Source: an uncultured Oscillospiraceae bacterium (GTDB lineage: Bacteria; Bacillota; Clostridia; Christensenellales; CAG-314). From it: 33,428 nt of DNA. The stretch lies in assembly GCA_964474475.1 (NCBI GenBank), contig CAYYTD010000001.1, forward strand, positions 1 through 33,428, in the 5' to 3' direction. The translations under genes and the position numbers were made by a program. This document shows positions 6,791 to 30,744 of this stretch, piece after piece; within the stretch, counting starts at the first letter, position 1; each line of letters begins with the position of its first letter. The notes beneath the pieces are model-generated. The model did not search any database, was not told where the DNA came from, and was given only the letters and a program-made list of their open reading frames with translations.

Positions 6791-6825
6791 GCTGACTTAT
6801 TGAAATCAAGAAAGAGGTGAAAAAC

Positions 6826-8118: not shown

Positions 8119-8173
8119 TTTCTTGTGCAAAGTTTAGTCAAGCAAAAAACTGTTTTTTTGGGAGGCGTTGCCA

Positions 8174-12400: not shown

Positions 12401-13204
12401 CTCGTTCCTAGAACCGTAGCCGTCTCCGCAGGAGCGCTTGACAAGGGATATGCAAACTACGTAGGCGTAACCGAGTTTGAAGCCAAGTTTGCCGAAGGCG
12501 TAACCGCAACGGACGTAAAATGGACCTACAAACTTAATGGCGAAGCAGGCGAAAAGGTCGGCGCAAAACTCGCTCTTGAAAACGGTGCTTACACCGAAGT
12601 TAAATTGTCCTTTACGGTTGGTGGCGAAACTTACACCTATCAATATCAAGACTTTAAGGTTTCGGCTCTCTCACTCAAGTCCTACACGGAAAAAGTTACC
12701 GTAACGGGCAGTACCGTTAGCGTTGACGACGGCGCAGGTTGGGGACAAAAGGATCAACTTGTAATCGAAAACGTACGCGCTCAAGAATTTGAACTCGTGT
12801 TCAACGCAGAGTACAAAGGAACGCCCGGCGGCGGATACCGCGTAATGTGCATCAACCTCTTTGGTGAAGCGATCAGACCGGTATTCGGTTATCAAAGAGA
12901 AGACCGTGCCGACAGAGCACAAATCGGTTTCGACAACAATGGTGAATGGACAGACATCAACAAGGCCGATGCGGAAGCAGATTACAACCACATCTTTGGA
13001 GAAGCAACCAAGTTCAGCCTCAAGCTTTCACAAGACGGCGAAGGCAAGTTCTGGATCACCTTCACGGTTTACCGTGCAGACGGCAGTGTTATTGCCCAAA
13101 AGACTTGCGACCACGCTGCATGGTACAGCTCCACTACGGAACTTCGTTTCACCTTCGAAAACATCGACCTCACTCTTGGCGGTTTTGAGGTTTACTACAA
13201 CTAA
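9434..13204 (+). CDS. Large surface lipoprotein (1256 aa): N-terminal Ig-like domain plus three tandem modules of FIVAR-like helical segment, Ig-like domain and jelly-roll/LamG-like beta-sandwich
   Basis: Lipobox GVVAAC-TPD. FIVAR-like segments include DYTSSSWSALQTALDTAKAALNQSGISQADVDAATAGVTSAISNLV and DYTTESWGKITAAKTQAESAATQEQVNAAAAAIDKAIAELV. Ig-like repeats: ATYSWKVDGKEVATTATLAFTPTEFKRYEIECTA vs VTYAWSVNGTAKGTGEEFKFTPESFGKVEITCQA vs VKWTYKLNGEAGEKVGAKLAL. Each is followed by a roughly 170-aa beta-rich block. Confidence 0.8.
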   Translation: MKRILTLVLVLAVMLGVVAACTPDPEPDPQPTMLTVTSAAEVSLELGQSYMLAYDTDGTVQVSVSGGSYDAESQKFTATEAGTYTITLTATAQGKKETVATVKVTFTVASANKTALGTAIESAGALVKTDYTSSSWSALQTALDTAKAALNQSGISQADVDAATAGVTSAISNLVSSLVKAEIGADNKSFTWMETTYAEADYDNFADIVAEISALNANAEMTVKSKYNPAISAILDKLVAKLKLAIKSELKNNATMIVESLVEYTLTAESEDGATYSWKVDGKEVATTATLAFTPTEFKRYEIECTATKGKSSNVKTHTVAFVKADYVVNGRFTDSISVANNVISVTGDLGWGDEEGKKVTLPDLRLSGNFTVYFDVTFTKTADPAVMALFLLKDNGERNDFWVAVLQHNNRLEVATRGDSDDFKPRYEMPAGTATLDKVIHVMMTRTIKDGKAYLYAYILDDDGKVIMTHDANGLYKDDADSLGTVQLGIQAEHAHFTVSNLAVGINDNLVNRKPVNESIAKLSGYVESDYTTESWGKITAAKTQAESAATQEQVNAAAAAIDKAIAELVPATFEKAEVSATGITYAGRTYGADDYTNYETVLAQVNELAKLTLRSKYNPEIVKVLATLQLKLNFSVSGIADGTNLIVKALTEYTLTASSETEGVTYAWSVNGTAKGTGEEFKFTPESFGKVEITCQASTASGAVASRVISVSFIESDVKTPIGDKVTIGDDGSFTTQTGIEWPYWEGRNVLYDDLIFNGSFSITMDLTYNGTSDGATVATIHLLNADTLSPSWGGDWAYVGYGCICLHENPVRLETCWSGTGKKQSSDGGFDSIATAMSGVADLLEQGDTFTVKLTCYRNAEKQLQLVYSLLNTKNGEWIEFNRNEWAGDMGGGFIVGINVEHIGLTAKNVRYELLDATGSYLAGSVKSRAVLSATLVKYQDVVASEYVNGAAFTAAYKAAWALMSNNSAIVDYDAAAQALETAAKALVPRTVAVSAGALDKGYANYVGVTEFEAKFAEGVTATDVKWTYKLNGEAGEKVGAKLALENGAYTEVKLSFTVGGETYTYQYQDFKVSALSLKSYTEKVTVTGSTVSVDDGAGWGQKDQLVIENVRAQEFELVFNAEYKGTPGGGYRVMCINLFGEAIRPVFGYQREDRADRAQIGFDNNGEWTDINKADAEADYNHIFGEATKFSLKLSQDGEGKFWITFTVYRADGSVIAQKTCDHAAWYSSTTELRFTFENIDLTLGGFEVYYN

Positions 13205-13242
13205 TTTTTGTAGTATCAAATAACGTTAGTTATTAAAATCAG

Positions 13243-13306
13243 GTTTTCCACTCACGAGGGGCGCCTTTTACAAGGCGTCCCCAAAGTGGAAACTAAATAG
13301 TTTTTT
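13243..13306 (+). terminator. Two-tier GC-rich hairpin followed by a T-run (terminator-like, possibly leaky)
   Basis: Outer stem GTTT(T)CCACT 13243-13252 pairs with AGTGGAAAC 13285-13293. Inner stem GGGGCGCC 13258-13265 pairs with GGCG(T)CCCC 13274-13282. TTTTTT at 13301-13306 is 8 nt from the stem, so this is not a textbook intrinsic terminator. Confidence 0.4.
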
Positions 13307-13320: not shown

Positions 13321-14238
13321 GTGAAATTCATGAAACCCCTCATGATTGCCTTTGCAATCATACTTTTGCCTTTGTTCGTGCTGTCCACCATGCAGCTGTT
13401 TGGCTGGACGTGGCCTACGGAATTTGCAGGCGCCAACGTAGTAATGACGGTGGTTTTGGCTGTTTTTACTGCGTTACTGGTAATTTCTGCTTTCGGGCAG
13501 AAGTTTAGAATACAAAAAATAGGCACTTATCTTCTCCACGCGGGATTCGTTTTGTTCCTTGCGGGGAGTTTGCTCTACGTAACTACGGGTACTTCTCTCA
13601 CAGTAGCCGTGCCTGTGGATAACACTAAGGCTTACAGCTATTTGGAAGATAGCAACGGCAACGTGGTAGAGCTTGGCTTTGCCTTTGGTCTTGACCAATT
13701 CAAGATTACTTATTACGACCCTGTTTACGACGTTTACCAAGTGGACGGGGAAAACACCAAGACGGTAATGACCGACGTGCAAGTGCAAAAGTCGGCAACC
13801 GGCGAATGGTACTATGATTTTGACAAATACGGCGCAATAACTCTCAACGAGTTACTTGACGGCGAAAGTATAGATACGATAAAACAAACGGTCACTTTAG
13901 GCGACGGAGTGGTTGCTTCCGTTAGGTTGTTAGTCAAGGAATACGTTGCCAACGTTACTTTTATTGACGAAAACGGCGGCGAAACGAGCCAAGAACTGTT
14001 GGTTAACCACACGTTGTACAAAAACGGATTCAAAATTTACCTCATGGGGTACGACGAAGTATCTTCGCGCGTTACCTTAATGTTCAAGAAGAATATCGGC
14101 GAACCTTTGTCTACGGCAGGGCTGATCGTCGTAATGGCAGGCACCCTCTTCCAATGCATCGTGTATCCTTTAATTGTTAACAGGAAAAGCAAAAATGCCT
14201 TGCCCGCATCCGAAAAGGACGAGGAGGGCAAGATATGA
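13321..14238 (+). CDS. ccsB: Compact ResB/CcsB (Ccs1)-like cytochrome c biogenesis protein (System II)
   Basis: 305 aa. N-terminal TM helices include a His-containing helix (IGTYLLHAGFVLFLAGSLL), then an extracytoplasmic domain, then VNHTLYKNGFKIYLMGYD (compare the ResB consensus VNHPL..G...YQ.sY) and a C-terminal TM. The stop overlaps the ccsA start (ATGA at 14235-14238). GTG start 5 nt after AGAGG. Confidence 0.65.
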   Translation: MKFMKPLMIAFAIILLPLFVLSTMQLFGWTWPTEFAGANVVMTVVLAVFTALLVISAFGQKFRIQKIGTYLLHAGFVLFLAGSLLYVTTGTSLTVAVPVDNTKAYSYLEDSNGNVVELGFAFGLDQFKITYYDPVYDVYQVDGENTKTVMTDVQVQKSATGEWYYDFDKYGAITLNELLDGESIDTIKQTVTLGDGVVASVRLLVKEYVANVTFIDENGGETSQELLVNHTLYKNGFKIYLMGYDEVSSRVTLMFKKNIGEPLSTAGLIVVMAGTLFQCIVYPLIVNRKSKNALPASEKDEEGKI

Positions 14239-14993
14239 GTTGGTTGAAAATAGTAATGGTTGCCTCGGCACTGTTCCTTTTTGCGGCAACTGCGTTGTTC
14301 GTTAAGAAACGCACCTACGCCAAGTACGTGGCGGCAATCGGCTTTGTTTTGAACGGAGTAGTCGTTGCGGTAAACTGGATTTCTAACGGCTATGTTCCCT
14401 TCATCAGCATGTATCAAGTGCTGGCGTTCGTGGGTGTTTGTTTCCCCCTTGCGTATTTGCTAATTCACTTCGTGCGCGAAACCAAAGTGAATTTTGCTTG
14501 GTTTACCCTTTGCGCAGGCGTGTGCATGGTCGGTTCGGCAGCGATGTTCAGCACCATGATTTGGCATCGGGCACCCGCCTTGCAGTCACCTTTCTTTATT
14601 CCTCACATACTTTGTTACATTTTGTCCTACTCTTTGTGCGCCGTCGCTTTCGTGCAGACGATAGTGATGATGTTCCAAAAGAAAGAGGAAGACAAGGCAG
14701 AAACGGAAAAATCCATCTACGCCATAGTGATAACGGCATTTCCATTTATGGTAATGGGTATGTTTCTCGGCGCCATTTGGGCAAACGAATGCTGGGGCAA
14801 TTACTGGTCGTGGGATCCCAAAGAAAACTGGGCGCTCATCACCACTTGCTTGTACGCATTCTATTTCCACGTAAGAAAACGCAAATTTTTCAAAAAATGG
14901 CTTGTTCCCGTTTTAATAATCGCTTTCGTAAGCCTAATTATTACATTTATCGGTGTCAATGCGGTAGAAGGCGCATTGCACTCCTATTCATGA
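14235..14993 (+). CDS. ccsA: Cytochrome c assembly protein CcsA/ResC (haem-handling, System II)
   Basis: Polytopic membrane protein with the tryptophan-rich WWD motif WANECWGNYWSWDPKENWALIT (nt 14778-14831). Flanking conserved-looking histidines occur in FFIPHILCY and FYFHVRK. Confidence 0.85.
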   Translation: MSWLKIVMVASALFLFAATALFVKKRTYAKYVAAIGFVLNGVVVAVNWISNGYVPFISMYQVLAFVGVCFPLAYLLIHFVRETKVNFAWFTLCAGVCMVGSAAMFSTMIWHRAPALQSPFFIPHILCYILSYSLCAVAFVQTIVMMFQKKEEDKAETEKSIYAIVITAFPFMVMGMFLGAIWANECWGNYWSWDPKENWALITTCLYAFYFHVRKRKFFKKWLVPVLIIAFVSLIITFIGVNAVEGALHSYS

Positions 14994-15012
14994 ATATTTA
15001 ATGGAGGTATTT

Positions 15013-17259
15013 ATGGAAAAGAAACTTATCAAAAAGCTCCTAATAGGCACCTGTTGCCTGCTGTTTGTTCTTGCTTGCGGTTTTGCACTAACCGCTTGCG
15101 ACAAAGAGGAGCTCAACTTTGAGTCGGTTAGTGTGTATCACACGGCCGAACAGTACGTTTCTCCGTCGGGCATTGCTCGCAAGGGAGAGTCGACTTTCGT
15201 TTCCGATGCTACGCTCAACAAGGTTTACAAGCTCAACGAAGAGGGCACCGTTCTTAGGTCCTATTCGTTTGACCAAACGGTCAACTCCGTTTACGTAAAC
15301 GGCGACAACGTTTACGCGCTTGTAGGCGAACTTGCAGGGGAAATTTACCGCTTCGACGGATCCCTTAATCTCCTGTCTAAGGCAGAAGTAGAGCACACCC
15401 CAACGGATGCACTCGTCCTTGACGGCAAGATTTACGTGGTGAACAGATTTTCGGCGTCGATATCTATTCTTTCCGAAGACTTGACAACTAACGTAGAAAA
15501 GATTGACCTATCCGACGGCAGAGAGCCCATGGCAATTGCAACGGCACAAAACAAAATATTCGTTGCTTGTCATCTTCCTAGCGGCAAAGCTACCGACGCA
15601 ACCGTATCTGCCGATTTGTTCGTGATCAATCCCGAAACGGCAAAGGTTACCAAGAAAATAGAGTTGCTCAACGGAACGGGCGGACTCAAAGACATGGCAG
15701 TATCGTCCGACGGCAAATACGTTTACACAACCAATTTGTTCGCAAGATACGCCTACCCCACGTCGCAACTCGATCGCGGATGGATTAACACCAACGGCAT
15801 TACCGTGGTGGATGCCACAGCCGAAGAGGTGTACGCAGGAGTGTTGCTCGACAGCGTTGAACGCGGAGCATCCAACCCGTGGGGAATTGACGTAATAGGC
15901 GAAGGCAAAAATGCCAAAGTCGTTTGCGCCATCAGCGGTCTTGGCGAAATCTCCGTCATCGACGAATCGGCAATGTTTGCCAAGCTGCAACGCGTAGAAA
16001 AGGGCGAGTTTGACTACGGCTTGGATGCAGTAGTGGATCGCGTTGAATTTTCTTCGGATATCAGCCAGCGCATTTCCGTTGGCGGCAACGGACTTAGAGA
16101 AGTTTTGCTTGCCGACGAATACGGAACGGAATATGCCTACCTTACCCAGTATTTTGACGGAACTATTACCAAAATCGCTCTCGAAACGGACGAAGTAGGT
16201 GAGCGCGAAAAGGCCGTTTACATGATCGGTTCGCAAGGAACCCCCACTAAGGAAAGAATAGGCGAAATTCTTTGGTACGACGGCAATTACTGTTATCAAG
16301 CGTGGGAGTCCTGTGCAAGCTGCCACCCCGATGCAAGAGCCGACGGATTAAACTGGGATAACCTCAACGACGGTCTTGGCAACCCCAAGCAGGCAAAGTC
16401 GATGATGTATTCACATCGTACCCCTCCCGAAATGGTCACCGGCGCGCGTGAAACTGCCGAGCTTGCCGTGCGCAAGGGAATGCAGTTCATTCAGTTCAAC
16501 ACCATGGAAGAAGAGCTTCTTGAGTGCATCGACGATTATCTCAAGTCGCTTGCGCCCACGCAAAGTCCTTACCTCAACAGAGATGGCACGCTTACTGCCT
16601 CGGCAGAGCGCGGCAAGGAATTGTTCAGTCAGTTCAATTGCGCATCTTGCCACACCGGTCCATATTACACCGACCTTCAAATGCATCAATCCTCCTCTCT
16701 CGACCTTGACGACACGTGGGAAGACAGAGCTTTCGACACACCCACTCTCGTTGAAATTTGGAGAACGGCACCATACGTATTCAACGGAAGTTGTGCAACG
16801 ATGGAAGATGCTGTAAGGTATTTCGTAGAAAAATCCGGCAAAACCATTACCGACGAACAAGTAACGGACCTTGCTAACTACATACTTTCCATCGGCGACG
16901 AAGGGGAATATTACGGCGTTCAACAGGTATTTTTCGATAGAAACGACGACTCCGGCGAACTTGCCGTTCAATTGCTCGTTCCGGGAAGAACCATGAACAA
17001 GGTGACGATACGCAAGCAGCATGATACCGACAAGAATGCGTACGTTTGCATCAAGCTTTACGATGCAAGCGGCAAGCAAATCGGTGAAAGCGTCAACGCC
17101 GTTCTCACGGGAATGGTAAAGGGCGATTACGCCATGTTTGAGTGCGATCTCGATGTGCCTGCGGATCTTGCCAAAGGAAGTTATTACGAAATTACAATCG
17201 TAAATGCAGACGACACGGGTGAAGCGTTAGCAACGCCGCTCCGCGTGTATTATAATTAA
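15013..17259 (+). CDS. Lipoprotein: N-terminal YVTN/lactonase-type beta-propeller fused to a di-haem cytochrome c peroxidase/MauG-family domain
   Basis: Lipobox GFALTAC-DK. Propeller-like repeats include KIYVVNRFSASISIL, KIFVACHLPS and DGKYVYTTNLF. Two CXXCH motifs: WESCASCHPDARADG (nt 16312-16326) and FNCASCHTGPYYTD (nt 16639-16653). CCP signature: AFDTPTLVEIWRTAPYVFNGSCATMEDAV. ATG 15013 is 5 nt after GGAGG; the ORF track gives 15001. Confidence 0.8.
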   Translation: MEKKLIKKLLIGTCCLLFVLACGFALTACDKEELNFESVSVYHTAEQYVSPSGIARKGESTFVSDATLNKVYKLNEEGTVLRSYSFDQTVNSVYVNGDNVYALVGELAGEIYRFDGSLNLLSKAEVEHTPTDALVLDGKIYVVNRFSASISILSEDLTTNVEKIDLSDGREPMAIATAQNKIFVACHLPSGKATDATVSADLFVINPETAKVTKKIELLNGTGGLKDMAVSSDGKYVYTTNLFARYAYPTSQLDRGWINTNGITVVDATAEEVYAGVLLDSVERGASNPWGIDVIGEGKNAKVVCAISGLGEISVIDESAMFAKLQRVEKGEFDYGLDAVVDRVEFSSDISQRISVGGNGLREVLLADEYGTEYAYLTQYFDGTITKIALETDEVGEREKAVYMIGSQGTPTKERIGEILWYDGNYCYQAWESCASCHPDARADGLNWDNLNDGLGNPKQAKSMMYSHRTPPEMVTGARETAELAVRKGMQFIQFNTMEEELLECIDDYLKSLAPTQSPYLNRDGTLTASAERGKELFSQFNCASCHTGPYYTDLQMHQSSSLDLDDTWEDRAFDTPTLVEIWRTAPYVFNGSCATMEDAVRYFVEKSGKTITDEQVTDLANYILSIGDEGEYYGVQQVFFDRNDDSGELAVQLLVPGRTMNKVTIRKQHDTDKNAYVCIKLYDASGKQIGESVNAVLTGMVKGDYAMFECDLDVPADLAKGSYYEITIVNADDTGEALATPLRVYYN

Positions 17260-17271
17260 GGAGGGCAAAAT

Positions 17272-20200
17272 ATGAAGGATATGAAAAAACGTACCGTAGC
17301 GGTTATCGCTTTTGCAACTTTATTGATTATTTGCCTTACGTTTGTGGGTTGCAACGACAACGGCCCCGTTAAGGGATACGAACCGTCTACGTTAACCAAC
17401 AACACGACGACCATCAAGACTACCTCTGCCGAGCAAACGCAGTACTATGGTTCTCTTGAAAACGTAATCGAAGGATATGCCTCCGAGTACGTAATTACGC
17501 GTCACAAACCAATGGCAGGTACCTTTTACGCCTACACCGAAGGCATCACCGACGACCTTGCCGGACTTCACGGCGGCGAAGGCAACGAAGCCGTCTTTTG
17601 GCCGGGCTCTCAACTGCTCAAGTTGAAGCTGTCTTATGACCTTGACGGAAATCTTCAAAAGGAAGAAGAACTGCTGGTAGATTCTCCCAACGGAGTAGTG
17701 CGCGATCCGGACGTTTCCGCCGATGGCAAAAGAGTGGTGTTCAGCTGGAAACAAAACAAACAAGACGACTACCACCTTTACATTTACTTTTTAGAAACGG
17801 GCCTTGTTGAGCAAATCACCTTTGGTCAAGGCATCAGTGATACCGAACCCAAGTGGTTGCCCAACGGTCAAATAGTCTTTTCCTCGTCCAGAACGGTACA
17901 AATAGTAGACTGCTGGAAAACCCCCGTATCCAACCTGTATATTTGCAATGCAGACGGTTCGGAAATGATCCGCGTAGGATACGACCAAGTTCACACAACC
18001 TACCCCACCGTTACGGAAGATGGCAGAGTGCTTTACACTCGTTGGGACTACAACGACAGAACGCAAATGTTCGTTCAAGCGCTTTTCTCAATGAATGCCG
18101 ACGGCACCGGACAAACGGCAGTATTCGGAAACAACAGTAACAACCCTACTACGGTAATGCACACCGTTGCCGTTCCCGGTTCGTCCAGTAAGTACCTTAC
18201 CATCGTTTCCGGTCACCACGTAACACAAGGCGGCAAACTTGCCGTTATCGATACCGCAATCGATCGTGACGGACAATCTCCCCTCGATTACGTATTCGAA
18301 GCTGCCGAATCGGGCGAAAGTATCGACACTCTCGGTCAAGCAGGCAGAATTTACAAGTACCCCATTGCAATTAACGAAAATGAAATGATTTTCGCCAGAG
18401 CGGAGTCTTGGGCAAGTGCCAAGCAAGAAACCAAGTTCAGCTTGTATTATTACAATTCCGAAACGGGCGAAATGATTTGCATTGCCGATTGTAACGGTGG
18501 CAAAATTTCCTGTTCGCAAATTGCACCCATTCGCACCAAACGCACATTCGTTCGCCCCAGCATGGTCGATTACTCCAAGGATACCGGCACCTATTACGTT
18601 GCAAACGTTTACGAAGGCGACACCATGAAGGAAGTTGAATTCGGTGCAGTCAAGTATCTCCGCGTAGTTGCGTTGGATTACAGACCTTACGCCGTTGGTG
18701 CGGTTTCGGCAGGAAACAGCTCGGCTTATCCCGACGGTTTTGGTACTTCCGACCCGTCAACACCCGTAGGAACGGCAAACTCCACGTGGGACGTAAAGAA
18801 GGTTATCGGCATCGTGCCTGTCGAAGAAGACGGCTCCGTAATGTTCAGTTGCCCGTCGGACGTTCCCGTGTACTTCCAGCTCCTAGATGAAAACGGATTG
18901 ATGATTCAGTCCATGAGAAGTTGGTCCACCCTCATGCCGGGCGAAACTTTCTCCTGCGTGGGATGTCACGAAAGCAAAAACAACGTTCCCGTTAGCGGCA
19001 GCATGGTTACGATGGCAATGAAGAAGGGCGTCCAAAAGCTTCAAAAAGACATTTGGATGACCACTGAAGAGTACGAAAATTACGATCCTTACACCGATTA
19101 CAAAGGATTTAGCTACGCCGACGAAATTCAGCCCATTCTTGACAGAAGTTGTGTGTCGTGTCATACTAACGTAGAATTGGCAAATAAGCGTCTTGGCAGC
19201 CAAGGCATTTCGGTAGATATAGGCAAAACGGTTACTTCTTCCACGTGGAAGTATCTTGTAACTACAAAGAGTAACGACGTTTCTTGGACGAGTTCCGCCT
19301 TCAATCCCGATTGGTCAACGGCAACGCAACCCTTTGGTAGCGATTCAGGCAGTTCCATCACGTGGGGTGCAAGTTCCGATGCTTGCTTCTACATGACGCA
19401 ACAATTTACCCTCACGGCTGACCAGCTCAAAGGCAAGTTCTTTATCAAGTGGCAGTACGACGAAGATCCTCAACTCTATCTCAACGGTACGAGAATCGAT
19501 TCCGTTCCTGTCAACGGCACCTACATTACAGGCACAACCTATTTTGAACTTTCCGCATCGCAAAAAGCACTTCTCAACGAAGGTACCAACACGATTACCG
19601 CGCGTGCTTACAACGCTATGGGCGGTTCGTATATGTACGTAGAGTTAACCTGCAACACTGAGGTTGCTTCCACAACCACAAGCCCTGTTGCACTTACGGA
19701 CGAAATTAGGGTAGCAAGCCGCGACAAGGTAGATTACTATCTGTCCTACCTCGTGCTTACAGGTTCTTTCCTCAAGGGTAACTTCTATTGCGGGACTCCC
19801 ACTAACGACATCACCGATTGGATCGGCGGCATGAGCGATCCTACGACCATTCCTGCGTATACTCATGGTTCAACCCAAAGCGGAATCATCGAAATGCTCA
19901 TGAACGACCATCAAGGACTTCTTTCTTCGGGCAAGATCAGCAAGGAAGACATCTACCGCATTGCAGCATGGATCGATCTCGGCGTTCCTTACAGAGGAAG
20001 CTACAACGAAGCTTCGGAAAACTGGGGTTCGTTGGAAATGGGTGAAGCCGAAAGACGCCAAAACATGCGCGACTATTACAACAAGATCGACGAGTTGAAC
20101 AAGGCAAAAAAAGCAGGCCAACTCAGCAGAAAAAAGGTGCTCATCGAGTACTTTGATGCAAGTGGCAACTATATCGGCGCAGTAGAAGATAGACACCTTT

Positions 20201-20949
20201 CCATTCTCTATCTCGATCAAAAAATTCAAGCGGGCGACACCGTCGTCGTAACCCTTCCCAGTGGCTACGAATACGTGTGGTTTAGCCTCAGTCCCAAAAT
20301 GAAGCTGGCACTCATGTACTGTCCGGACGGCGTGTTCACTTACACGGTTCCCCAGTATGCCGAAAATATCTTCCCCAACCTTACCGTAGGAAAGGATCAA
20401 TACGTTTACACCCATCCCACGATTACCGCCTTCCTTCCTAGCGAAGAAGACTTGAATGCAATTTACAACGTAGCACTCAATCCGTACGACGCAGGCTACA
20501 AAAACGAAGGAGCCAAGATAACCACAGGCAGCGCTTGGGAAAACGACGGTTACGGCAACTTCTTCCCTGCAAACGCATTTGACGGATTCACCTGCAACCG
20601 CGGCCACGGTGTATTCCCCAACCAAAGCTGGGGACCGGACAAGAACGTAGGCAATGAAGATAGATGGCTGCAAATCGACTTCGGTAGAGAAGTAGAGCTT
20701 TACTCCTTTGAAATGTTCATTCGTGCAGACTTCCCGCACGATGCTTACATCACCAAGCTGGAACTTGAATTTTCCGACGGGACGATAATAGAGTGGACTG
20801 ACCTCAAGCAAACGAATCAAGGTCAAATCCTCGTCCTCGAAGAAGCCATCAAAACTACTTTCGTAAAGATTAAAAATATCGAAACTTCCAAGGACGATTG
20901 GTTCGGAATTTCCGAGTTTATGGCTTACGGCAAAAACGTTATCAAGTAA
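17272..20949 (+). CDS. Lipoprotein (1225 aa): PD40/TolB-like beta-propeller, HzsA-like di-haem c module, galactose-binding-like beta-sandwich and C-terminal F5/8 type C (discoidin)-like domain
   Basis: Lipobox LTFVGC-NDN. PD40-like repeats: DVSADGKRVVFSW, PKWLPNGQIVFSSSR, PTVTEDGRVLYTRWDY. CXXCH motifs: PGETFSCVGCHESKN (nt 18955-18969) and DRSCVSCHTN (nt 19150-19164). Beta-sandwich pattern: FFIKWQYDEDPQLYLNGTRI. Discoidin-like: NEDRWLQIDFGREVELYSFEMFIRADF. RBS AAGGAGGG. Confidence 0.75.
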   Translation: MKDMKKRTVAVIAFATLLIICLTFVGCNDNGPVKGYEPSTLTNNTTTIKTTSAEQTQYYGSLENVIEGYASEYVITRHKPMAGTFYAYTEGITDDLAGLHGGEGNEAVFWPGSQLLKLKLSYDLDGNLQKEEELLVDSPNGVVRDPDVSADGKRVVFSWKQNKQDDYHLYIYFLETGLVEQITFGQGISDTEPKWLPNGQIVFSSSRTVQIVDCWKTPVSNLYICNADGSEMIRVGYDQVHTTYPTVTEDGRVLYTRWDYNDRTQMFVQALFSMNADGTGQTAVFGNNSNNPTTVMHTVAVPGSSSKYLTIVSGHHVTQGGKLAVIDTAIDRDGQSPLDYVFEAAESGESIDTLGQAGRIYKYPIAINENEMIFARAESWASAKQETKFSLYYYNSETGEMICIADCNGGKISCSQIAPIRTKRTFVRPSMVDYSKDTGTYYVANVYEGDTMKEVEFGAVKYLRVVALDYRPYAVGAVSAGNSSAYPDGFGTSDPSTPVGTANSTWDVKKVIGIVPVEEDGSVMFSCPSDVPVYFQLLDENGLMIQSMRSWSTLMPGETFSCVGCHESKNNVPVSGSMVTMAMKKGVQKLQKDIWMTTEEYENYDPYTDYKGFSYADEIQPILDRSCVSCHTNVELANKRLGSQGISVDIGKTVTSSTWKYLVTTKSNDVSWTSSAFNPDWSTATQPFGSDSGSSITWGASSDACFYMTQQFTLTADQLKGKFFIKWQYDEDPQLYLNGTRIDSVPVNGTYITGTTYFELSASQKALLNEGTNTITARAYNAMGGSYMYVELTCNTEVASTTTSPVALTDEIRVASRDKVDYYLSYLVLTGSFLKGNFYCGTPTNDITDWIGGMSDPTTIPAYTHGSTQSGIIEMLMNDHQGLLSSGKISKEDIYRIAAWIDLGVPYRGSYNEASENWGSLEMGEAERRQNMRDYYNKIDELNKAKKAGQLSRKKVLIEYFDASGNYIGAVEDRHLSILYLDQKIQAGDTVVVTLPSGYEYVWFSLSPKMKLALMYCPDGVFTYTVPQYAENIFPNLTVGKDQYVYTHPTITAFLPSEEDLNAIYNVALNPYDAGYKNEGAKITTGSAWENDGYGNFFPANAFDGFTCNRGHGVFPNQSWGPDKNVGNEDRWLQIDFGREVELYSFEMFIRADFPHDAYITKLELEFSDGTIIEWTDLKQTNQGQILVLEEAIKTTFVKIKNIETSKDDWFGISEFMAYGKNVIK

Positions 20950-20970
20950 TATTAGGGAGGAAACAAAAAC

Positions 20971-22659
20971 ATGAAGAAAACACTCGCTTTAATTCTTTTG
21001 TCGGTGTTGGCGTTAACGTTGGTTGCTTTTGCAGCTTGTGAAAAGGAACCGCCCGCACCCGTAAAGCCCACCGTGGGCACAGTAAGTGGCGTTGTAACCG
21101 ATTCTGCCGGCGATCCGCTTGAAGAAGCAGAAGTTTACTATTCCGAAGATTCTTCCGTTGAAACAAACGAGAACGGCAAATTCAGCATCAAAAACGTAAC
21201 CGTTGGCGATCTTACTTTGAAGGTAACACTCAAAGGCTACGCCACGAAAACGGTCAACGTAAACTACGACAGTTTCGACGACGAAGGCAACTGCAACTTG
21301 ACCATCGCCCTGGAAGATGGCGTAGGCACCATTAAGGGTACCGTCAGCGTAGACGGACTTACTTCCAAAAAGCTCCAAGGCGTTACCGTCTCTCTCGGTA
21401 GTTCGCAAGTGACGACGGACAAGGACGGCAAGTACGAAATTACCAACGTTTCCATGCACGGAACCAAAACCCTTACGGCAGTCGTCGACGGCTACGGTCA
21501 GTCGCGCAAAACCGTAACCGTTCGTTCCTTCGACGTAAACGGCGTTGCAACGGTCAACTTCCAACTCGTTCAAAACGACCTTGCCGAGTTGCCGGGCATC
21601 AAACCCAGCCAGCTTGAAGCGCTCGAAATTATTCCCGCAAGCAAAACGCAACTCAGCCTTTCCGACCTGAAAAATCTCAATCGCAGCCCGGACGGACTTG
21701 CAGGCACTTCCAAGGTTGAAGATCACGGCGAAGGTCTTTGCGTTAATGCCGATACCAAGAGTGACAATTCCAATATGGTTGCCTTCATTTACGGCAAAAT
21801 TAAAATTGACGACAACCACAAGTTCCTTACCTCTTACGTAAGAATTTTCTTCGGACAAAACGGCGGCAAGGATCACGATGCAGAAGCCGCAGGCGACTTT
21901 TCAACTGCAAAGCTTGCCGAGCTTGGCGTGTACATCATCAACGAACAAGGTGAAGTCGTCACAGACGTTGCTACCTTCCAAAAGGTAACCACCGAAGGTT
22001 TCATGCCCGTAACGTTCGATCTTTCCGCTTTTAGCGGACAAACGGTAACCTTCATTCTCGGCACCAAGACGGGATATCACTGCTGCTTTGACAGAGTAGA
22101 ATTTGCTGCCGCAGCTCCCAGATATCTTACCGTTAGCGGAGTGGACGGACTTACCAGCATTATGCTTCACAGCAAAGTGACGGATACTTCCTTCGATGCT
22201 GCAGCGCTCAAAGAAAAATGGGCTATCAGCGGTGGCGTAGGCATGGTGAGTGAAGGCATACAACTTAACGGCGCCGATCCTTGGAAGGCTGAAGATTTCG
22301 ATGCAGCCAATCCTCAGCCTGTAAACTCCTATATGTACTTAACTACGGATATTACCGCACAAAACAGTCAAATGTCAATTGCGGCAACCATCGTTAACCT
22401 TAAAGAGTGCACAGACCCCGCTTCTGCCGATCCCAACCATCACTTCTTCCCGTGGGTTTCCGTAATAGTGCTTGACAGTAACGGCAATGTTCTCAAGCAA
22501 ACGGACTGGACCAAGGTTGAAGTTGCCGAAAACAACGCCGAGTTCAATTTGGATTGCGATCTTTCCTCTTGCGTAGGGCAAGACGTCACCGTCGTTATTG
22601 CCTGCAATGTAGGTTATCGTGCAACCATCACGGGCGTAACTTTTGACGCAGCACAGTAA
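20971..22659 (+). CDS. Lipoprotein with two carboxypeptidase-regulatory-like (CarboxypepD_reg) domains and two related C-terminal beta-sandwich modules
   Basis: Lipobox LVAFAAC-EKE. CarboxypepD_reg-like segments: GTVSGVVTDSAGDPLEEAEVYYSEDSSVETNENGKFSIKNVTVGDLTLKVTLKGY and GTIKGTVSVDG...VTTDKDGKYEITNVSMHGTKTLTAVVDGY. C-terminal duplication: VTFDLSAFSGQTVTFILGTKTGYHCCFDRVEF vs FNLDCDLSSCVGQDVTVVIACNVGYRATITGVTF. Confidence 0.7.
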   Translation: MKKTLALILLSVLALTLVAFAACEKEPPAPVKPTVGTVSGVVTDSAGDPLEEAEVYYSEDSSVETNENGKFSIKNVTVGDLTLKVTLKGYATKTVNVNYDSFDDEGNCNLTIALEDGVGTIKGTVSVDGLTSKKLQGVTVSLGSSQVTTDKDGKYEITNVSMHGTKTLTAVVDGYGQSRKTVTVRSFDVNGVATVNFQLVQNDLAELPGIKPSQLEALEIIPASKTQLSLSDLKNLNRSPDGLAGTSKVEDHGEGLCVNADTKSDNSNMVAFIYGKIKIDDNHKFLTSYVRIFFGQNGGKDHDAEAAGDFSTAKLAELGVYIINEQGEVVTDVATFQKVTTEGFMPVTFDLSAFSGQTVTFILGTKTGYHCCFDRVEFAAAAPRYLTVSGVDGLTSIMLHSKVTDTSFDAAALKEKWAISGGVGMVSEGIQLNGADPWKAEDFDAANPQPVNSYMYLTTDITAQNSQMSIAATIVNLKECTDPASADPNHHFFPWVSVIVLDSNGNVLKQTDWTKVEVAENNAEFNLDCDLSSCVGQDVTVVIACNVGYRATITGVTFDAAQ

Positions 22660-22726: not shown

Positions 22727-23617
22727 ATGAAACCATCACAAAAAAGCAAACCGTTTGATAGAAAAGACGTATTTTTCCGCACGTTTAAGGAGCATTACGG
22801 CGTTTTGCTCGGCGTAAGCTTGGCAATGTTTGTATTTGCTCTGCCCGTAGTTGCGGTTTATTTCGGCGCGTATATCGAGTTGTCTCTTTTGGGAGAAATC
22901 ACGTTGGAAAACGCAGTGGAAATGTATTCCATACAAACGCAAATGTATATTTGGCTCATTCCTGCCTTTGCCATTTTTTCGGTGGGCGCAGCGGGTGCGT
23001 TTTACGTCATTCGCCGGCTGGTTTGGGATCAGCCAGTTTTGTTCTTTAGGGATTTCTTCCGCGGAATAAAGGCAAATTGGTTACAAAGCTTAATTAGCGG
23101 AGTAATTTTCATTCTTTTTATGGGAGCGCTCAATTACGCAATGAACATGCTCGTCCTCAACGTAGAGTTGGGCTCCGCCTATTGGACGTTGTACGTGGTG
23201 CAAATATTCTTGGCGGTAGTTGCGGCAATGCTGTTGCTGTTTCAGTATGCCGCCATCGCCGTTTACAACGACAACGTATTCAAAATTATCAAGAACAGCT
23301 TTGCTTTCCTTTGGGCGACCTTCCCCCGAAGCATCGGCATCGTACTGTTGGCATTTGCGCCCGTATTTGTTTTGCTTGCTTTTGCTAGTGTGTACATCAT
23401 CTACATCATCGTGTTGATATTCCTTGCGCTGGTGGGCTTTGCTTACGGCATACTCGTCTTCACCCTTCACGCGCATTACGTGTTCGACAAGTACGTCAAC
23501 AAGCAGTCTTTCCCCGACGTGTACAAAAAGGGGCTTTACCACGAAGGAACGACGGTCGGTAGCGAAACGGAATCTTCCGTCCCCGCCACCGAGGGCTACA
23601 ACATCGACGTTGAATAG
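22727..23617 (+). CDS. YesL/DUF624-family integral membrane protein
   Basis: About 6 TM segments. The N-terminal FFRTFKEHYGVLLGVSL and FFRDFFRGIKANW motifs are typical of DUF624 proteins, which accompany Gram-positive sugar ABC loci. The RBS is weak. Confidence 0.7.
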   Translation: MKPSQKSKPFDRKDVFFRTFKEHYGVLLGVSLAMFVFALPVVAVYFGAYIELSLLGEITLENAVEMYSIQTQMYIWLIPAFAIFSVGAAGAFYVIRRLVWDQPVLFFRDFFRGIKANWLQSLISGVIFILFMGALNYAMNMLVLNVELGSAYWTLYVVQIFLAVVAAMLLLFQYAAIAVYNDNVFKIIKNSFAFLWATFPRSIGIVLLAFAPVFVLLAFASVYIIYIIVLIFLALVGFAYGILVFTLHAHYVFDKYVNKQSFPDVYKKGLYHEGTTVGSETESSVPATEGYNIDVE

Positions 23618-23659: not shown

Positions 23660-23732
23660 AAAAAAGGCGCTCGGCGAAGTTTTTCGTCGGGCGTCTTTTT
23701 CGTGATTTGTTAATTATTATTGCAATTCGTTG
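23660..23732. repeat. 73-bp direct repeat, copy 1 (contains a terminator)
   Basis: Matches 25151-25223 at a constant offset of 1491 bp, with one mismatch seen (23709 G vs 25200 A). Looser similarity extends a few nt upstream (CAATAA...). Confidence 0.85.
23666..23700 (+). terminator. Rho-independent terminator (A-tract upstream and T-tract downstream, so possibly bidirectional)
   Basis: 13-bp stem GGCGCTCGGCGAA / TTCGTCGGGCGTC (three G-U pairs), loop GTTT, then TTTTT (23696-23700). Preceded by A7 (23659-23665). Confidence 0.7.
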
Positions 23733-23976: not shown

Positions 23977-24330
23977 GTGGACAATCACGAAAGGGTACGC
24001 GAGCTTACGGATAGGTTTTCCGCTTGTTCCAAAGTGCTTATTGCCATAGGGGACGAAACGAGACAGCGACTGATACTGGAAATGATGAAAATTGGCAAGT
24101 GCAACGGCGTTCGCGTGGGCGAAATAACACAAAAGACGAATTTGTCGCGCCCTGCAGTGTCCCATCATTTGCAAATAATGAAGGATGCCGGCATCGTCAA
24201 AGTGCGCAAGGAAGGCACCAAGAATTACTATTATTTCGATTCGGAAATGGAGTGCTTCGAGCAGTTAATTTCCACATTGCGTTTTGCCATGGAAATATCT
24301 GCCGATTTGCCCGATAGGCGCGGAGAATAA
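23977..24330 (+). CDS. ArsR/SmtB-family winged-helix transcriptional regulator
   Basis: 117 aa. Sequence LIAIGDETRQRLILEMMK...VGEITQKTNLSRPAVSHHLQIMKDAGIVKVRKEGTKNYYYF. GTG start 9 nt after AAGGAGG. Confidence 0.85.
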   Translation: MDNHERVRELTDRFSACSKVLIAIGDETRQRLILEMMKIGKCNGVRVGEITQKTNLSRPAVSHHLQIMKDAGIVKVRKEGTKNYYYFDSEMECFEQLISTLRFAMEISADLPDRRGE

Positions 24331-24437
24331 CGGGCATTTGCGCAAGACAACTCAAGTGGGCAAAGTGCCTATTTTGATGGCAAATAAAGATAATTAACCG
24401 TTAAGCGGTGCAATTTTACTAAAACGGAGGTAAAAAA

Positions 24438-25094
24438 ATGGATATATTGCAAATAATGCAGTCACGTCACAGCGTAAGGCAATACGCCGATAGGGCAATT
24501 GAGCAAGACAAAAGGCAGCAATTGGACGAATTGGCCGCCGCGCTTAACAACGAAGCGGGTTTGAATATTCAAATTATTTATGACGAGCCAAATTGTTTCA
24601 ATTCCTTCATGGCAAGGTACGGCAAGTTTTCGGGCGTGAGCAATTATATTGCACTCGTTGGCAAAAAGTCTGCCGATTTGGATGAAAAACTTGGCTATTG
24701 CGGCGAGCAGCTGGTGCTTAAAGCGCAAGAATTGGGATTGAACACCTGCTGGGTTGCACTAACTCACGGCAAAAGCAAGGCTGCTATCGGCAAGGGAGAA
24801 AAGCAAGTGTGCTTAATTGCTCTCGGCTACGGCGCCACGTGCGGAATGGAACACAAGAACAAGCCATTACACAAGGTCAGCAACTGCACCGATTCGTCCC
24901 CCGAATGGTTCGCAAAGGGCGTCAACGCCGCACTGCTGGCGCCCACCGCAATGAATCAGCAAAAATTCTATTTTGAGTTGCAAGCGAACGGCAGTGTAAA
25001 AGTCAAGAGCGGTTCAGGCTTTTATACCAAGTTGGATTTGGGCATTGCCAAGTACCACTTTGAATCCGTTTCCAACGTTAAGGTAAGTAAATAG
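24438..25094 (+). CDS. Nitroreductase-family (FMN-dependent) oxidoreductase
   Basis: 218 aa. N-terminal IMQSRHSVRQYADRAIE is typical of the nitroreductase fold. RBS GGAGG. Confidence 0.85.
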   Translation: MDILQIMQSRHSVRQYADRAIEQDKRQQLDELAAALNNEAGLNIQIIYDEPNCFNSFMARYGKFSGVSNYIALVGKKSADLDEKLGYCGEQLVLKAQELGLNTCWVALTHGKSKAAIGKGEKQVCLIALGYGATCGMEHKNKPLHKVSNCTDSSPEWFAKGVNAALLAPTAMNQQKFYFELQANGSVKVKSGSGFYTKLDLGIAKYHFESVSNVKVSK

Positions 25095-29177: not shown

Positions 29178-29465
29178 GCCTTTTGGTGGCCACAACAACG
29201 GAAAACGGAACAAAGGTTAGTAAGTAATTGCAAATTCGCCTTTTGCTGCCACCGCCAATCCTACGCCCTTGTAGAGAAACGCAAGAATGTTTGCAAACGG
29301 CAAACCTGCACGAAAGGCGCGATGGAACAATCGTATAAATCAAGAATCGTGTAGAGGCGAATATTGCACAAAAAATTGTGCAAAGATGAATACCGTGCGA
29401 GCAATCGTGAAAAAACGTCGCACAAATGATTGTGTAAAAAATTGTAAAAAATGTATTGTACAAAG

Positions 29466-30732: not shown

Positions 30733-30744
30733 TAGAGGCTTGTT

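Follow-up and report, generated by a model that had tools for sequence, protein, structure and literature searches.

A four-gene cytochrome c cassette homologous to hydrazine synthase subunits adjoins alpha-mannan utilization genes in an uncultured Clostridial genome

Introduction

Hydrazine synthase (HZS) of Kuenenia stuttgartiensis (PDB 5C2V), an enzyme of the anammoxosome, combines an alpha subunit, which has a propeller, an HZS_alpha middle domain and two haem c sites (alpha-I and alpha-II), with a beta propeller and a di-haem CCP/MauG-like gamma domain (gamma-I and gamma-II). A beta-gamma fusion is reported for Ca. Scalindua japonica, and in anammox bacteria the gene order is beta-gamma, then alpha. 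Co-located genes for an HZS-like alpha protein and a fused beta-gamma-like haem protein are also known as clades I-IV from Planctomycetota, Desulfobacterota and others, and these non-anammox homologues lack key catalytic residues of HZS (PMC12758564). Clades I-III have the alpha gene upstream of beta-gamma together with a FG-GAP/CRTAC1 gene, and the alpha-II haem is absent from clades II and III. Clostridial surface-anchored forms with CBM or dockerin modules and private ccs genes are not discussed in that study, and our literature search found no paper describing the Clostridial cassette reported here.

Members of the bacterial di-haem peroxidase/MauG/MbnH/RoxA superfamily bind two c-type haems within a domain of ∼220 aa, in which CCP-like motifs (for example, FDTPTL) occur. 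In System II cytochrome c maturation (CcsBA/ResBC), CcsA has a WWD motif, two flanking outer His and one transmembrane (TM) His, its ResB partner has a TM His, and the two genes may overlap and lie beside those of their clients. In the Bacteroides MAN-PULs (PMC4978465), a single locus encodes a GH76 endo-mannanase, a GH125 exo-mannosidase, a surface lipoprotein, an importer and a regulator. Here we describe a locus that has features of all of these systems.

Results

Layout of the locus

The window, the whole stretch of 33,428 nucleotides that was analysed, comes from an uncultured gut Clostridium and contains 24 main ORFs; all coordinates below refer to its + strand. Its mannan genes encode GH125 (812-2080; Pfam 1e-145), a solute-binding lipoprotein with two permeases (2102-5326; Pfam), a secreted protein of no assigned family (5330-6790), a GH76 lipoprotein (6817-8118; Pfam), a GH76 protein without a signal peptide (8168-9376; Pfam) and a PKD/FIVAR lipoprotein of 1256 aa (9434-13204). 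The original prediction had placed a LacI-type repressor, GH125, a sugar importer and two GH76 genes upstream of the cytochrome genes, and Pfam supported every one of them, including the LacI-type binding domain. This set resembles the MAN-PULs, from which the window differs in its Gram-positive organization (ABC importer, LacI-type regulator), in the absence of GH92, GH99 and GH38, and in its cytochrome c cassette. The prediction had known of no described mannan locus with such gene content, and our literature searches likewise returned no mannan locus with a cytochrome c cassette.

Positions 13321 to 20949 comprise a single copy of a self-contained cassette of four genes, which encode a minimal System II pair and two exported di-haem c proteins. 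The ORF coordinates, the ATGA overlap between the first two genes (13321-14238 and 14235-14993) and the short gaps of the original reading were all reproduced. After ccsA, 7 nt precede the first ATG of the following ORF; a later ATG, at 15013 (gap of 19 nt), has GGAGG ahead of it and is likely the true start. The next two gaps are 12 nt and 21 nt. Downstream lie a 562-aa lipoprotein (20971-22659) with two CarboxypepD_reg domains (Pfam 1.5e-21) and an unassigned C-terminal part, and a polytopic membrane protein (22727-23617), the last gene of the run. The latter had been called YesL-type, the one weak point of the original reading: TM prediction bears out the membrane protein, no Pfam family matched, and the product is only weakly similar to MusI, a sugar ABC importer accessory protein (NCBIfam MusI_fam, 5.7e-7 and a sub-threshold 29.6 bits against a cutoff of 160).

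All genes from GH125 to the MusI-like gene are on a single strand. At 652-730, 3′ of a LacI-family gene fragment (17-643), a promoter-like site (TTGATT-17 nt-TATAAT) precedes the palindrome AAAACGGTTTT, which is present in two exact copies, and a strong terminator-like hairpin (23661-23700; 18-bp stem with 8 GC pairs, T-rich tail) closes the transcription unit. The proposal of one operon thus gained one good promoter with operator-like palindromes and one strong terminator. The operon's largest intergenic gap (116 nt) separates the giant lipoprotein gene from the ResB-like gene, and it holds a GC-rich hairpin at 13242-13294 (dG −28.3 kcal/mol, z −5.5). The position of this stem is kept in relatives despite different sequence, with GC-rich palindromes in loci L010, L001, L088 and L087; no conserved T-run was found 3′ of it, and between 13204 and 13321 we found neither a palindrome of the AAAACGGTTTT type nor a promoter-like site. 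The hairpin could be a partial terminator, which would count against co-transcription, but we consider that the cassette is probably transcribed together with the mannan genes.

A maturation pair and two di-haem lipoproteins

The first cassette gene (13321-14238) encodes a ResB/CcsB-like membrane protein of 305 aa (relatives, 230-340 aa) with four predicted TM segments and a shortened outer domain. It matches Pfam ResB (2.6e-16) at profile positions 142-278 of 486 only, and its His73 in TM3 is kept in 51 of 51 homologues. The second gene (14235-14993) encodes CcsA, the subunit that handles haem in System II, and its product has the WWD motif WGNYWSWDPKENW (Pfam Cytochrom_C_asm, 1.6e-33; TIGR03144, 144.6 bits, below the cutoff of 187.6). 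W187, W191, D194, His212 and His249 are kept in 49 of 50 homologues and His124 in all 50. The pair departs from System II in its partial ResB match and sub-cutoff CcsA score, and in having no ResA or CcdA nearby, whereas the WWD motif, the three conserved His of CcsA and the invariant TM His of its partner bear out the earlier placement of a System II-type pair directly 5′ of its apparent clients. It appears to be dedicated to these two proteins.

The first client (15001-17259) is a 752-aa lipoprotein homologous to fused HZS beta-gamma, with a beta-propeller (∼aa 40-410), a di-haem CCP/MauG-like domain (∼aa 415-635) and a C-terminal beta-sandwich (aa 638-752). It matched the NCBIfam models hydrazine_BC (1.1e-18), hydrazine_gamma (1.1e-15) and hydrazine_beta (6.4e-11), all far under cutoff, as well as Pfam Cytochrom_C and, marginally, CCP_MauG (27.4 bits; cutoff 25.6). 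The best PDB sequence matches were 5c2v_C (3.6e-13) and 5c2v_B (2.4e-9), and the top Foldseek match of its AF2 model was 5c2v_B (E 1.1e-17; target-normalised TM 0.83). The pLDDT of this model was 84.9, with poor stretches near the first haem site (<50 at aa 453-460 and 472-476). The two CASCH motifs, at 16312-16326 (aa 438) and 16639-16653 (aa 547), align to the gamma-I and gamma-II motifs of HZS.

The second client (17272-20949) is a 1225-aa lipoprotein homologous to HZS alpha. It consists of a TolB/PD40-type propeller, the HZS_alpha middle domain (aa 458-567), a second haem domain, two beta-sandwich domains, a helical region and a C-terminal F5/8 type C domain (aa 1093-1215; nt 20548-20916), with Pfam matches to HZS_alpha (6.5e-33), F5_F8_type_C (9.3e-11) and PD40 and an NCBIfam match to hydrazine_alpha (2.3e-17). 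Its best PDB sequence match was 5c2v_A (3.3e-10), which was also the top Foldseek match of its AF2 model (pLDDT 85.7) with E 1.1e-21 over 710 columns, followed by TolB at 1e-10. CVGCH (18955-18969; aa 562) aligns to the alpha-I motif (CSGCH), and CVSCH (19150-19164; aa 627), with IQPILD ahead of it, aligns to the alpha-II motif (IQPILDAKCAMCH). All the domain families that the prediction had proposed for this region (ResB, Cytochrom_C_asm, CCP_MauG, HZS_alpha, PD40, F5_F8_type_C and CarboxypepD_reg) were thus supported by Pfam. Both haem proteins have lipoboxes, as do the neighbouring solute-binding and GH76 proteins.

The four CXXCH motifs lie exactly where they had been reported, two per lipoprotein, and among the 24 main ORFs of the window there are no others. 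C438, C441, H442, C547, C550 and H551 are invariant across 58 beta-gamma-like homologues. Among 57 alpha-like homologues, CVGCH is invariant, as is the His of CVSCH, both Cys of which are ≥90% conserved. In the fetched loci, 71 of 71 beta-gamma-like and 68 of 70 alpha-like homologues have exactly two CXXCH. Judged by this sequence conservation, the motifs are more than chance occurrences. In the window we found no gene for an electron donor, for a thiol reductase of the CcdA/ResA type or for the synthesis or uptake of haem, and the missing CcdA/ResA would fit proteins that have become non-haem surface binding proteins with relic CXXCH sites; given the near invariance of the sites, and a linked ccsA with conserved catalytic residues in 64 of 71 loci, we regard this as highly improbable.

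Relation to hydrazine synthase and to di-haem peroxidases

The two haem proteins share with anammox HZS the domain order of both subunits, all four haem sites, the IQPILD...CxxCH stretch and the gene order beta-gamma, then alpha. They differ in that structural alignments give only 16-17% identity and NCBIfam scores are 62 against a cutoff of 800 and 67 against 1250. The third haem thioether residue of HZS, gamma Cys165, aligns to Val490 (Val, ≥90% conserved), and at the ungapped +4 position after the alpha-I His, alpha-like proteins have a conserved Asn instead of the Tyr ligand. In addition, the alpha-like protein has ∼600 extra residues of beta-sandwich and F5/8 type C modules, the products are lipoproteins on a monoderm surface, and the cassette has its own ccs genes and no anammox partner genes; no hydrazine dehydrogenase or HAO-type gene was found in the window. 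Because the specific catalytic features of HZS are missing, we reject an identity as hydrazine synthase. The cassette shares this lack of key residues with clades I-IV, but it differs from clades I-III in its reverse gene order and in having no FG-GAP/CRTAC1 gene, and from clades II and III in having the alpha-II motif.

Descent from the HZS lineage could nonetheless mean nitrogen-oxide chemistry at the cell surface, such as reduction of NO or hydroxylamine or even N-N bond formation. No solved structure is closer to either protein than the HZS subunits, and in PDB sequence searches the gamma-like domain matched HZS gamma (3.6e-13) better than bacterial CCP (9.7e-7) or any other CCP or MauG. 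The same replacements and low scores that exclude hydrazine synthase, the absence of partner enzymes from the window and the residue losses in non-anammox homologues (PMC12758564) make such chemistry improbable. The beta-gamma-like protein differs from the CCP/MauG superfamily as well, in that its di-haem domain is fused behind a seven-blade-type propeller, the CCP motif FHDG reads VFNG, and its partner is an HZS alpha-like protein.

Distribution and association with mannan genes

An alpha-like relative is encoded in at least 590 species-level genomes; the hosts are almost all gut or rumen Clostridia, and every relative that we found comes from an uncultured organism. Across the fetched loci we repeatedly saw the order ResB-like, CcsA, beta-gamma-like, alpha-like; of the 71 informative loci, 61 have ccsA directly upstream and 3 have it just downstream. 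A multi-haem assembly of this kind, anchored at the surface and encoded along with maturation genes of its own, in hosts that otherwise rarely have c-type cytochromes, might pass respiratory or fermentative electrons to an external acceptor. However, each protein has only two haems, set within large propeller domains typical of enzymes, and the cassette lacks a quinol dehydrogenase or further cytochrome in all loci clustered, so that extracellular electron transfer seems very improbable.

Most copies of the cassette are found away from mannan or glycan loci. In 28 loci an AraC-type regulator is encoded beside the cassette, and some copies sit amid housekeeping genes; therefore, its core function cannot be mannan-specific. 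In contrast, in one deep clade (the window, L001, L007, L008, L010, L011, L087, L088, L089 and L090), with alpha-like identity down to 44%, the cassette is always found within GH76/GH125/GH38 loci. The link is kept even in L090, where rearrangement has placed the cassette upstream of the transporter, GH125 and GH76, and GH76 adjoins the cassette again in a second small clade (L017). Homologues of the 562-aa lipoprotein were found, among the fetched loci, only in L001, L007-L011, L087 and L088, that is, only in the mannan-type clade. Thus the mannan link is not general, yet it is real at the clade level.

These data bear on the possibility that adjacency is all there is, and that a general-purpose module for redox reactions or detoxification at the surface, such as a peroxidase guarding a strict anaerobe, joined the 3′ end of a mannan operon in a single lineage without a role in glycan use. 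The original prediction had named independent occurrence without mannan genes as evidence of this kind, and in part it was found: most copies are free of mannan genes, often with their own AraC regulator. The CCP/MauG-type di-haem domain also suits this explanation, as does the coincidence of the largest gap and a stable hairpin with the exact junction. However, the clade-level link and its recurrence in L017 argue against it, the window's cassette has no promoter or regulator of its own, and detoxification would not need the carbohydrate-binding-type and dockerin modules of the alpha-like subunit. We consider adjacency alone an unlikely, if serious, explanation. As to the modules, Dockerin_1 occurs in 17 of the best 120 alpha-like homologues, and relatives bear dockerin, Big_2, FIVAR or ricin modules in place of F5/8 type C.

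Discussion

The HZS-homologous pairing of the two haem proteins and the four-gene Clostridial cassette are additions to the original prediction, and we are highly confident of the identity of the proteins, as HZS beta-gamma and alpha homologues, and of the architecture of the cassette. Taken whole, the account that joins this identity to co-transcription with mannan genes and peroxide-type chemistry is the best explanation we have, and we give it an even chance of being correct. By analogy with HZS, the two haem proteins would assemble into a tetrahaem complex, kept by lipid anchors on the outside of the membrane of a monoderm Clostridium. CcsA and the ResB-like protein would carry haem outward and link it to the four CXXCH sites, and the F5/8 type C domain could tether the alpha-like subunit to glycan.

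The chemistry, for which the original prediction had suggested a redox step on mannan or peroxide handling, is the most speculative part of this account. The CCP/MauG-like haem of the beta-gamma-like subunit might react with a small oxidant, for example H2O2. The alpha-like haem, receiving oxidising equivalents through the haem chain, might then oxidise a substrate bound at the propeller and the CBM-like modules. Peroxide-driven oxidation in place of hydrazine synthesis is, in our judgement, a tentative idea with rather poor odds.

In the window's lineage, which has no regulator or promoter of its own for the cassette, the LacI-controlled alpha-mannan promoter most likely drives its expression, and the conserved intercistronic hairpin may set relative mRNA levels. 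If so, the complex would be made while yeast or fungal mannan is used, and a role for the cassette in mannan or fungal-wall use within this clade is a reasonable possibility that we rate a little short of even.

Gene organisation and transcription signals

The haem cassette consists of four forward-strand genes, encoding a ResB-like protein (13321-14238), CcsA (14235-14993), a 752-aa lipoprotein (15001-17259) and a 1225-aa lipoprotein (17272-20949); the two lipoproteins are homologues of subunits of anammox hydrazine synthase (HZS) and are called beta-gamma-like and alpha-like here. The original prediction had placed these genes and the one that follows in a single tightly spaced operon, and its ORF coordinates were reproduced by an ORF list and a translation scan of the window. 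The ResB-like and ccsA genes overlap by ATGA, and the next genes begin at 15001, 17272 and 20971, leaving gaps of 7 (or 19), 12 and 21 nt. Because GGAGG precedes the ATG at 15013, the beta-gamma-like gene probably starts there, with a gap of 19 nt; the ribosome-binding sites upstream of 17272 and 20971 are also good. Two CXXCH motifs were found where predicted in the beta-gamma-like gene (CASCH, 16312-16326 and 16639-16653) and two in the alpha-like gene (CVGCH, 18955-18969; CVSCH, 19150-19164), with no others among the window's 24 main ORFs in the translation scan. Every domain that had been named was supported by Pfam, except that the downstream gene called 'YesL-type' had as its sole match a sub-threshold MusI-family model (NCBIfam). 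The observation is thus confirmed, and its interpretation, a haem c-dependent redox step tied to mannan processing, is partly supported.

The sole good upstream promoter-like site (652-680, TTGATT-17-TATAAT) directly follows the LacI-family gene, which ends at 643, and lies ahead of three palindromes, two exact copies of AAAACGGTTTT (695 and 720) and one variant (732-744), which are likely operators of the LacI-family repressor. No second promoter-like site and no further palindrome or operator was found in the 116-nt gap that separates the giant lipoprotein gene from the ResB-like gene. This gap holds a stable, GC-rich hairpin (13242-13294; dG -28.3 kcal/mol, z -5.5), and a GC-rich stem of differing sequence and with no conserved T-run occurs at the same junction in four relatives (L010, L001, L088 and L087; L handles denote fetched loci carrying an alpha-like gene). 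In our reading the hairpin would act between cistrons to stabilise or attenuate the transcript and would fall short of a full terminator. The last gene is followed by a strong terminator at 23661-23700. Rfam and tRNA scans of the window gave no matches.

Two other regions of the window are recorded here. Beyond the terminator, 23977-25094 encodes an ArsR-family regulator and a TM1586-type nitroreductase; this small pair is redox-related and unlinked to the operon. Overlapping Cys-rich ORFs of 126 aa (11 Cys) and 287 aa (16 Cys), with no Pfam match, occupy about 2 kb (29287-31349) just upstream of yidC (31349) and jag/khpB (32648), two genes usually located near the replication origin.

The two haem proteins are related to hydrazine synthase

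The alpha-like protein matches Pfam HZS_alpha at 6.5e-33 and NCBIfam hydrazine_alpha at 2.3e-17 (62.2 bits vs a cutoff of 800). In a PDB sequence search just two chains passed the threshold, the HZS alpha subunit of Kuenenia stuttgartiensis (5c2v_A, 3.3e-10) and TolB (3.7e-5), and CVGCH 562 paired with the HZS alpha-I haem motif and CVSCH 627, together with the preceding IQPILD, with alpha-II. With a confident AlphaFold2 model (pLDDT 85.7), Foldseek ranked 5c2v_A first in the PDB (E 1.1e-21 over 710 columns) and TolB next (1e-10). The propeller, the middle domain and both haem motifs of the HZS alpha subunit are present.

For the beta-gamma-like protein, NCBIfam hydrazine_BC matches at 1.1e-18 and the gamma- and beta-subunit models match too, although the equivalog cutoffs are missed (hydrazine_BC 66.8 vs 1250, hydrazine_gamma 57.5 vs 625). 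The best PDB sequence matches are HZS gamma (5c2v_C, 3.6e-13, aa 419-628) and HZS beta (5c2v_B, 2.4e-9, aa 221-393), and in the alignment CASCH 438 corresponds to gamma-I and CASCH 547 to gamma-II. The AlphaFold2 model was likewise confident, with a pLDDT of 84.9 (57-58 homologues were used for the two models), and Foldseek placed 5c2v_B first in the PDB (E 1.1e-17, TM 0.83 normalised to target). The propeller and gamma di-haem features of HZS are therefore present by sequence, fold and NCBIfam. Distant representatives of this family bear only 'YVTN/lactonase beta-propeller' labels. In one close relative (L001:7517-9980, MAG GCA_964413365.1) the gene was called as two overlapping ORFs of 434 and 395 aa, which is a frameshift or assembly error.

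Because NCBIfam, the PDB sequence search, the haem-motif alignment and Foldseek all point the same way, we conclude that the haem pair is HZS-like beta-gamma plus alpha, in the anammox gene order. A true hydrazine synthase was nevertheless rejected, as the scores fall short of the curated cutoffs by an order of magnitude and HZS-specific residues appear to be missing. Cys165 of HZS gamma (the Cys of DRVCGRD) provides a third covalent haem link, and in the HMMER alignment it pairs with Val490, which is at least 90% conserved in the family. The ligand of HZS haem alpha-I is Tyr591, four residues after the CXXCH His, and that His binds zinc; the alpha-like protein has no Tyr within six residues after its alpha-I His, and the +4 position, read without gaps since the alignments end at the His, is Asn570 (N543 in the trimmed sequence), again at least 90% conserved. 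Together with the low scores and the lack of anammox partner genes, the conserved Val at Cys165 and, more tentatively, the Asn at the ungapped +4 position argue that these proteins are not hydrazine synthase. No hydrazine dehydrogenase, HAO-type gene or anammox electron-transfer module was found in the window or in 93 clustered loci. Nitrogen-oxide chemistry is an unlikely rival account of the cassette product; HZS kinship speaks for it, and these residues and missing partners speak against it. Chance occurrence of the CXXCH motifs was also rejected, since they are invariant or nearly so family-wide.

A general detoxifying peroxidase is another rival, and one match that bears on it is Pfam CCP_MauG, which reaches 27.4 bits (cutoff 25.6) over aa 416-486 of the beta-gamma-like protein, a protein with two CXXCH. 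The best cytochrome c peroxidase in the PDB sequence search (3o5c_A, 9.7e-7) ranked behind HZS gamma and beta. Di-haem peroxidases and MauG have a conserved Trp between the two haems and a Met or Tyr ligand of the second haem. In the beta-gamma-like protein this part is poorly aligned and poorly modelled (pLDDT below 50 at aa 453-460 and 472-476), and W452 and H472, both invariant in the family, are at best tentative counterparts. The beta-gamma-like protein thus appears to be a marginal, HZS-gamma-like member of the di-haem peroxidase/MauG superfamily.

HZS has, to our knowledge, long been held to be without relatives. Co-located HZS-like alpha and beta-gamma genes of no known function, with key residues not conserved, have been described from Planctomycetota, Desulfobacterota and a few other groups (PMC12758564, Dec 2025), a report that does not discuss Clostridia. 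As in those pairs, the alpha-like and fused beta-gamma-like genes are co-located in the window (12-nt gap), and 79 of the 93 clustered sequences contain the two. However, clades I-III of that report have alpha upstream of beta-gamma together with an FG-GAP/CRTAC1 gene, whereas all the loci listed here have beta-gamma and then alpha; FG-GAP/CRTAC1 was not found as a conserved neighbour in the 93 clustered loci. A large Clostridial branch that retains all four haem sites and the anammox order offers new material for comparison on how HZS originated. It also carries an annotation risk, since surveys of gut metagenomes may count Clostridial HZS-like genes as hydrazine synthase. One ruminant hindgut metagenome study (PMC12784710) counted KEGG K20934 ('hydrazine synthase subunit'), named Clostridium as a potential host and listed anammox among the pathways, and its K20934 matches may belong to the Clostridial HZS-like family.

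A predicted minimal System II accompanies the haem pair

CcsA carries the outer-face WWD motif as WGNYWSWDPKENW (aa 187-199), with W187, W191 and D194 kept in 49 of 50 homologues. Three His residues are conserved, His124 in all 50 homologues and His212 and His249 in 49 each; from what is established for CcsBA rather than from a structure, we take them to be the two outer His that flank the WWD motif and one transmembrane His. CcsA scores 116.6 bits with Pfam Cytochrom_C_asm, well above the cutoff of 29.9, and 144.6 bits with the TIGR03144 equivalog, whose cutoff of 187.6 is not reached, and it is thus a divergent member of the System II CcsA proteins. The ResB-like protein scores 59.9 bits with Pfam ResB (cutoff 24.6), covering just the middle of the profile (positions 142-278 of 486). 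It has four predicted transmembrane segments, with His73 in the third conserved in 51 of 51 homologues, and a short outer domain of ∼180 aa.

We read the ccs pair as a probable divergent, minimal System II. No CcdA or ResA/CcsX-type gene for a thiol-reducing partner was found within the 33-kb window; in Bacillus subtilis, CcdA and ResA are dispensable where an extracytoplasmic thiol oxidase is absent.

Distribution and synteny of the cassette

The databases hold more than 1900 relatives of the alpha-like and more than 600 of the beta-gamma-like protein, nearly all of them unnamed proteins of metagenome-assembled genomes, and in a scan of one genome per species a relative was present in at least 590 genomes. 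Uncultured Clostridia of the gut, caecum or rumen make up nearly all of the best 80 among these at least 590, alongside a few Armatimonadetes, Planctomycetaceae and Victivallales; c-type cytochromes are unexpected in fermentative gut Clostridia. An exact-sequence look-up of the window's CcsA gave no match. Automatic taxon labels conflict among the closest loci (Oscillospiraceae, Christensenellaceae, Lachnospiraceae), and our assignment therefore stops at the class Clostridia. When the beta-gamma-like protein was searched exhaustively, 406 clusters (50% identity) were obtained at E <=1e-30, and its C-terminal beta-sandwich was covered by only about 25 among the matches listed. On the short contigs of six relatives from outside the Bacillota (Armatimonadetes, Planctomycetaceae and Victivallales; L063, L079, L080, L084-L086), neither a beta-gamma-like nor a ccs gene is present, and the adjacent genes are uninformative.

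Clustering of the ORFs of 93 loci yielded five conserved genes, namely those for the two haem proteins (79 loci each), the ResB-like protein, CcsA and an AraC-type regulator (28 loci). Of 71 informative non-duplicate loci, counted with profile HMMs after five frame-segmentation artefacts had been set as adjacent by hand, 61 have ccsA immediately before the beta-gamma-like gene, 3 have it shortly after the alpha-like gene and 7 lack it. The number of CXXCH motifs was exactly two in every one of the 71 beta-gamma-like proteins and in 68 of the 70 alpha-like ones. The cassette appears to be portable and self-sufficient, bringing maturation genes that would serve two clients and no others.

The AraC-type regulator (cupin plus HTH_18) adjoins the cassette mostly just upstream of the ResB-like gene (L003, L018, L020, L025, L034, L035, L040, L041, L043, L047-L050, L060, L064, L068-L070, L072, L073, L075, L083 and others) and in none of the mannan-type loci. 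In one subclade (L034, L040, L041, L043, L047, L048 and L050; e.g. L047:525-4749) the AraC gene faces a divergent operon for two GFO/IDH/MocA oxidoreductases and two xylose-isomerase-like TIM barrel proteins, a set typical of oxidative sugar or glycoside catabolism.

The alpha-like family also varies in its accessory modules. Dockerin is present on 17 of the 120 best homologues, and others have Big_2, FIVAR or ricin-type modules. The Dockerin_1 proteins, L003:10001-15352 and 16 others, are 1500-2100 aa long and occur in unrelated contexts (e.g. L003, L005); the domain implies a c-type cytochrome predicted to be shown on a cellulosome-like scaffold. After the second haem domain, the alpha-like family profile (aa 658-782, ∼19246-19617 in the window) matches part of a sialic acid 9-O-acetylesterase (7kmm_A, 3.7e-6) over a beta-sandwich that may be a carbohydrate-binding-type module. 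A literature search on Clostridial or dockerin-linked c-type cytochromes and on HZS-like genes in polysaccharide loci found nothing relevant.

The cassette is linked to mannan genes in one deep clade

The window locus encodes, by Pfam, GH125 (1.1e-145), two GH76 proteins (1e-23 and 7e-29), a solute-binding protein, two permeases and a LacI-type binding domain. With GH76 (endo-alpha-1,6-mannanase) and GH125 (exo-alpha-1,6-mannosidase) family proteins, an importer and a regulator, it has the predicted make-up of an alpha-mannan utilisation locus. Since GH125 (812-2080) and the second GH76 (8168-9376) lack signal peptides and the first GH76 is a lipoprotein, the locus suggests endo-cleavage at the surface followed by trimming inside the cell. 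No GH92, GH99 or GH38 debranching enzyme was found in the window. The locus further encodes a 486-aa secreted protein of no confident family (5330-6790) and a 1256-aa PKD/FIVAR/BiPBP_C lipoprotein (9434-13204). In most mannan-type loci with upstream sequence, the gene immediately before the cassette encodes a large lipoprotein; none is recognisable in L090.

A first synteny census (tblastn with window proteins, 86 loci) detected GH76 only beside very close relatives, and a Pfam census of the 128 nearest neighbours showed no dominant CAZyme family among the 25 commonest families, a tally in which rarer CAZymes are hidden. That the mannan link is confined to very close relatives was overturned by annotated contigs of intermediate relatives. 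L087, L088 and L089 (alpha-like identity 69%, 63% and 48%) have a giant lipoprotein upstream of the cassette and GH76, GH38, GH43 and a metallophosphoesterase nearby. In L090 (44% identity) the genes after the cassette encode a solute-binding protein, two permeases, an 851-aa protein, GH125, GH76 and a regulator, which makes this a mannan locus in rearranged form. When a neighbour-joining tree was built from the alpha-like core, L087-L090 and the window fell in one deep clade. A second small clade contains L017, with GH76 beside the cassette, L019, with DUF5054 and GxGYxYP putative hydrolases, and L032, with a weak GH38-like match; GH43 and GH130 lie near the cassette in L091, and GH3 in L092.

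Synteny of the ccs cassette with GH76, GH125 or GH38 therefore holds for one deep clade, including the rearranged L090. The large clades with ∼1350-aa alpha-like proteins associate with AraC regulators. We conclude that the mannan link is clade-specific, old and kept through rearrangement, going beyond accidental adjacency, and that the core activity of the cassette cannot be mannan-specific.

Possible function and significance

What the parts are, how well they are conserved and that they are linked is established, and a mode of action can be proposed. The two haem proteins would form a tetrahaem complex anchored by lipid, with maturation supplied by the adjacent ccs genes; the F5/8 type C domain would tether the complex to glycan, and in the mannan-type clade it would be expressed together with the mannan genes. 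More speculatively, a small oxidant might react at the CCP-like haem and a substrate be oxidised at the alpha-like haem. The cassette encodes no electron donor, and a reaction that needs no external reductant is therefore favoured. Extracellular electron transfer is a rival function for such a surface haem complex. The fullest version of our proposal, which we regard as improbable as a whole, is an unrecognised class of extracellular haem c enzymes in gut and rumen Clostridia, of the same stock as HZS and tethered to glycan, or carried on cellulosomes by way of dockerins in some lineages, that performs oxidant-driven chemistry on cell-wall polymers, in the mannan-type clade fungal alpha-mannan or mannoprotein.

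What is new, judged from sequence comparison, is an apparent haem complex of HZS-like type that gut Clostridia would carry on their surface along with a private System II, and that one clade has recruited into its alpha-mannan loci. The carbohydrate-binding-type and dockerin modules and the mannan-locus setting point to possible redox activity at polysaccharide surfaces in anaerobes, where we know of no redox enzyme class that acts in this way. If the proposal is true, it would mean redox-assisted glycan breakdown in anaerobes, and would provide a large Bacillota family as a close outgroup for tracing how HZS arose.
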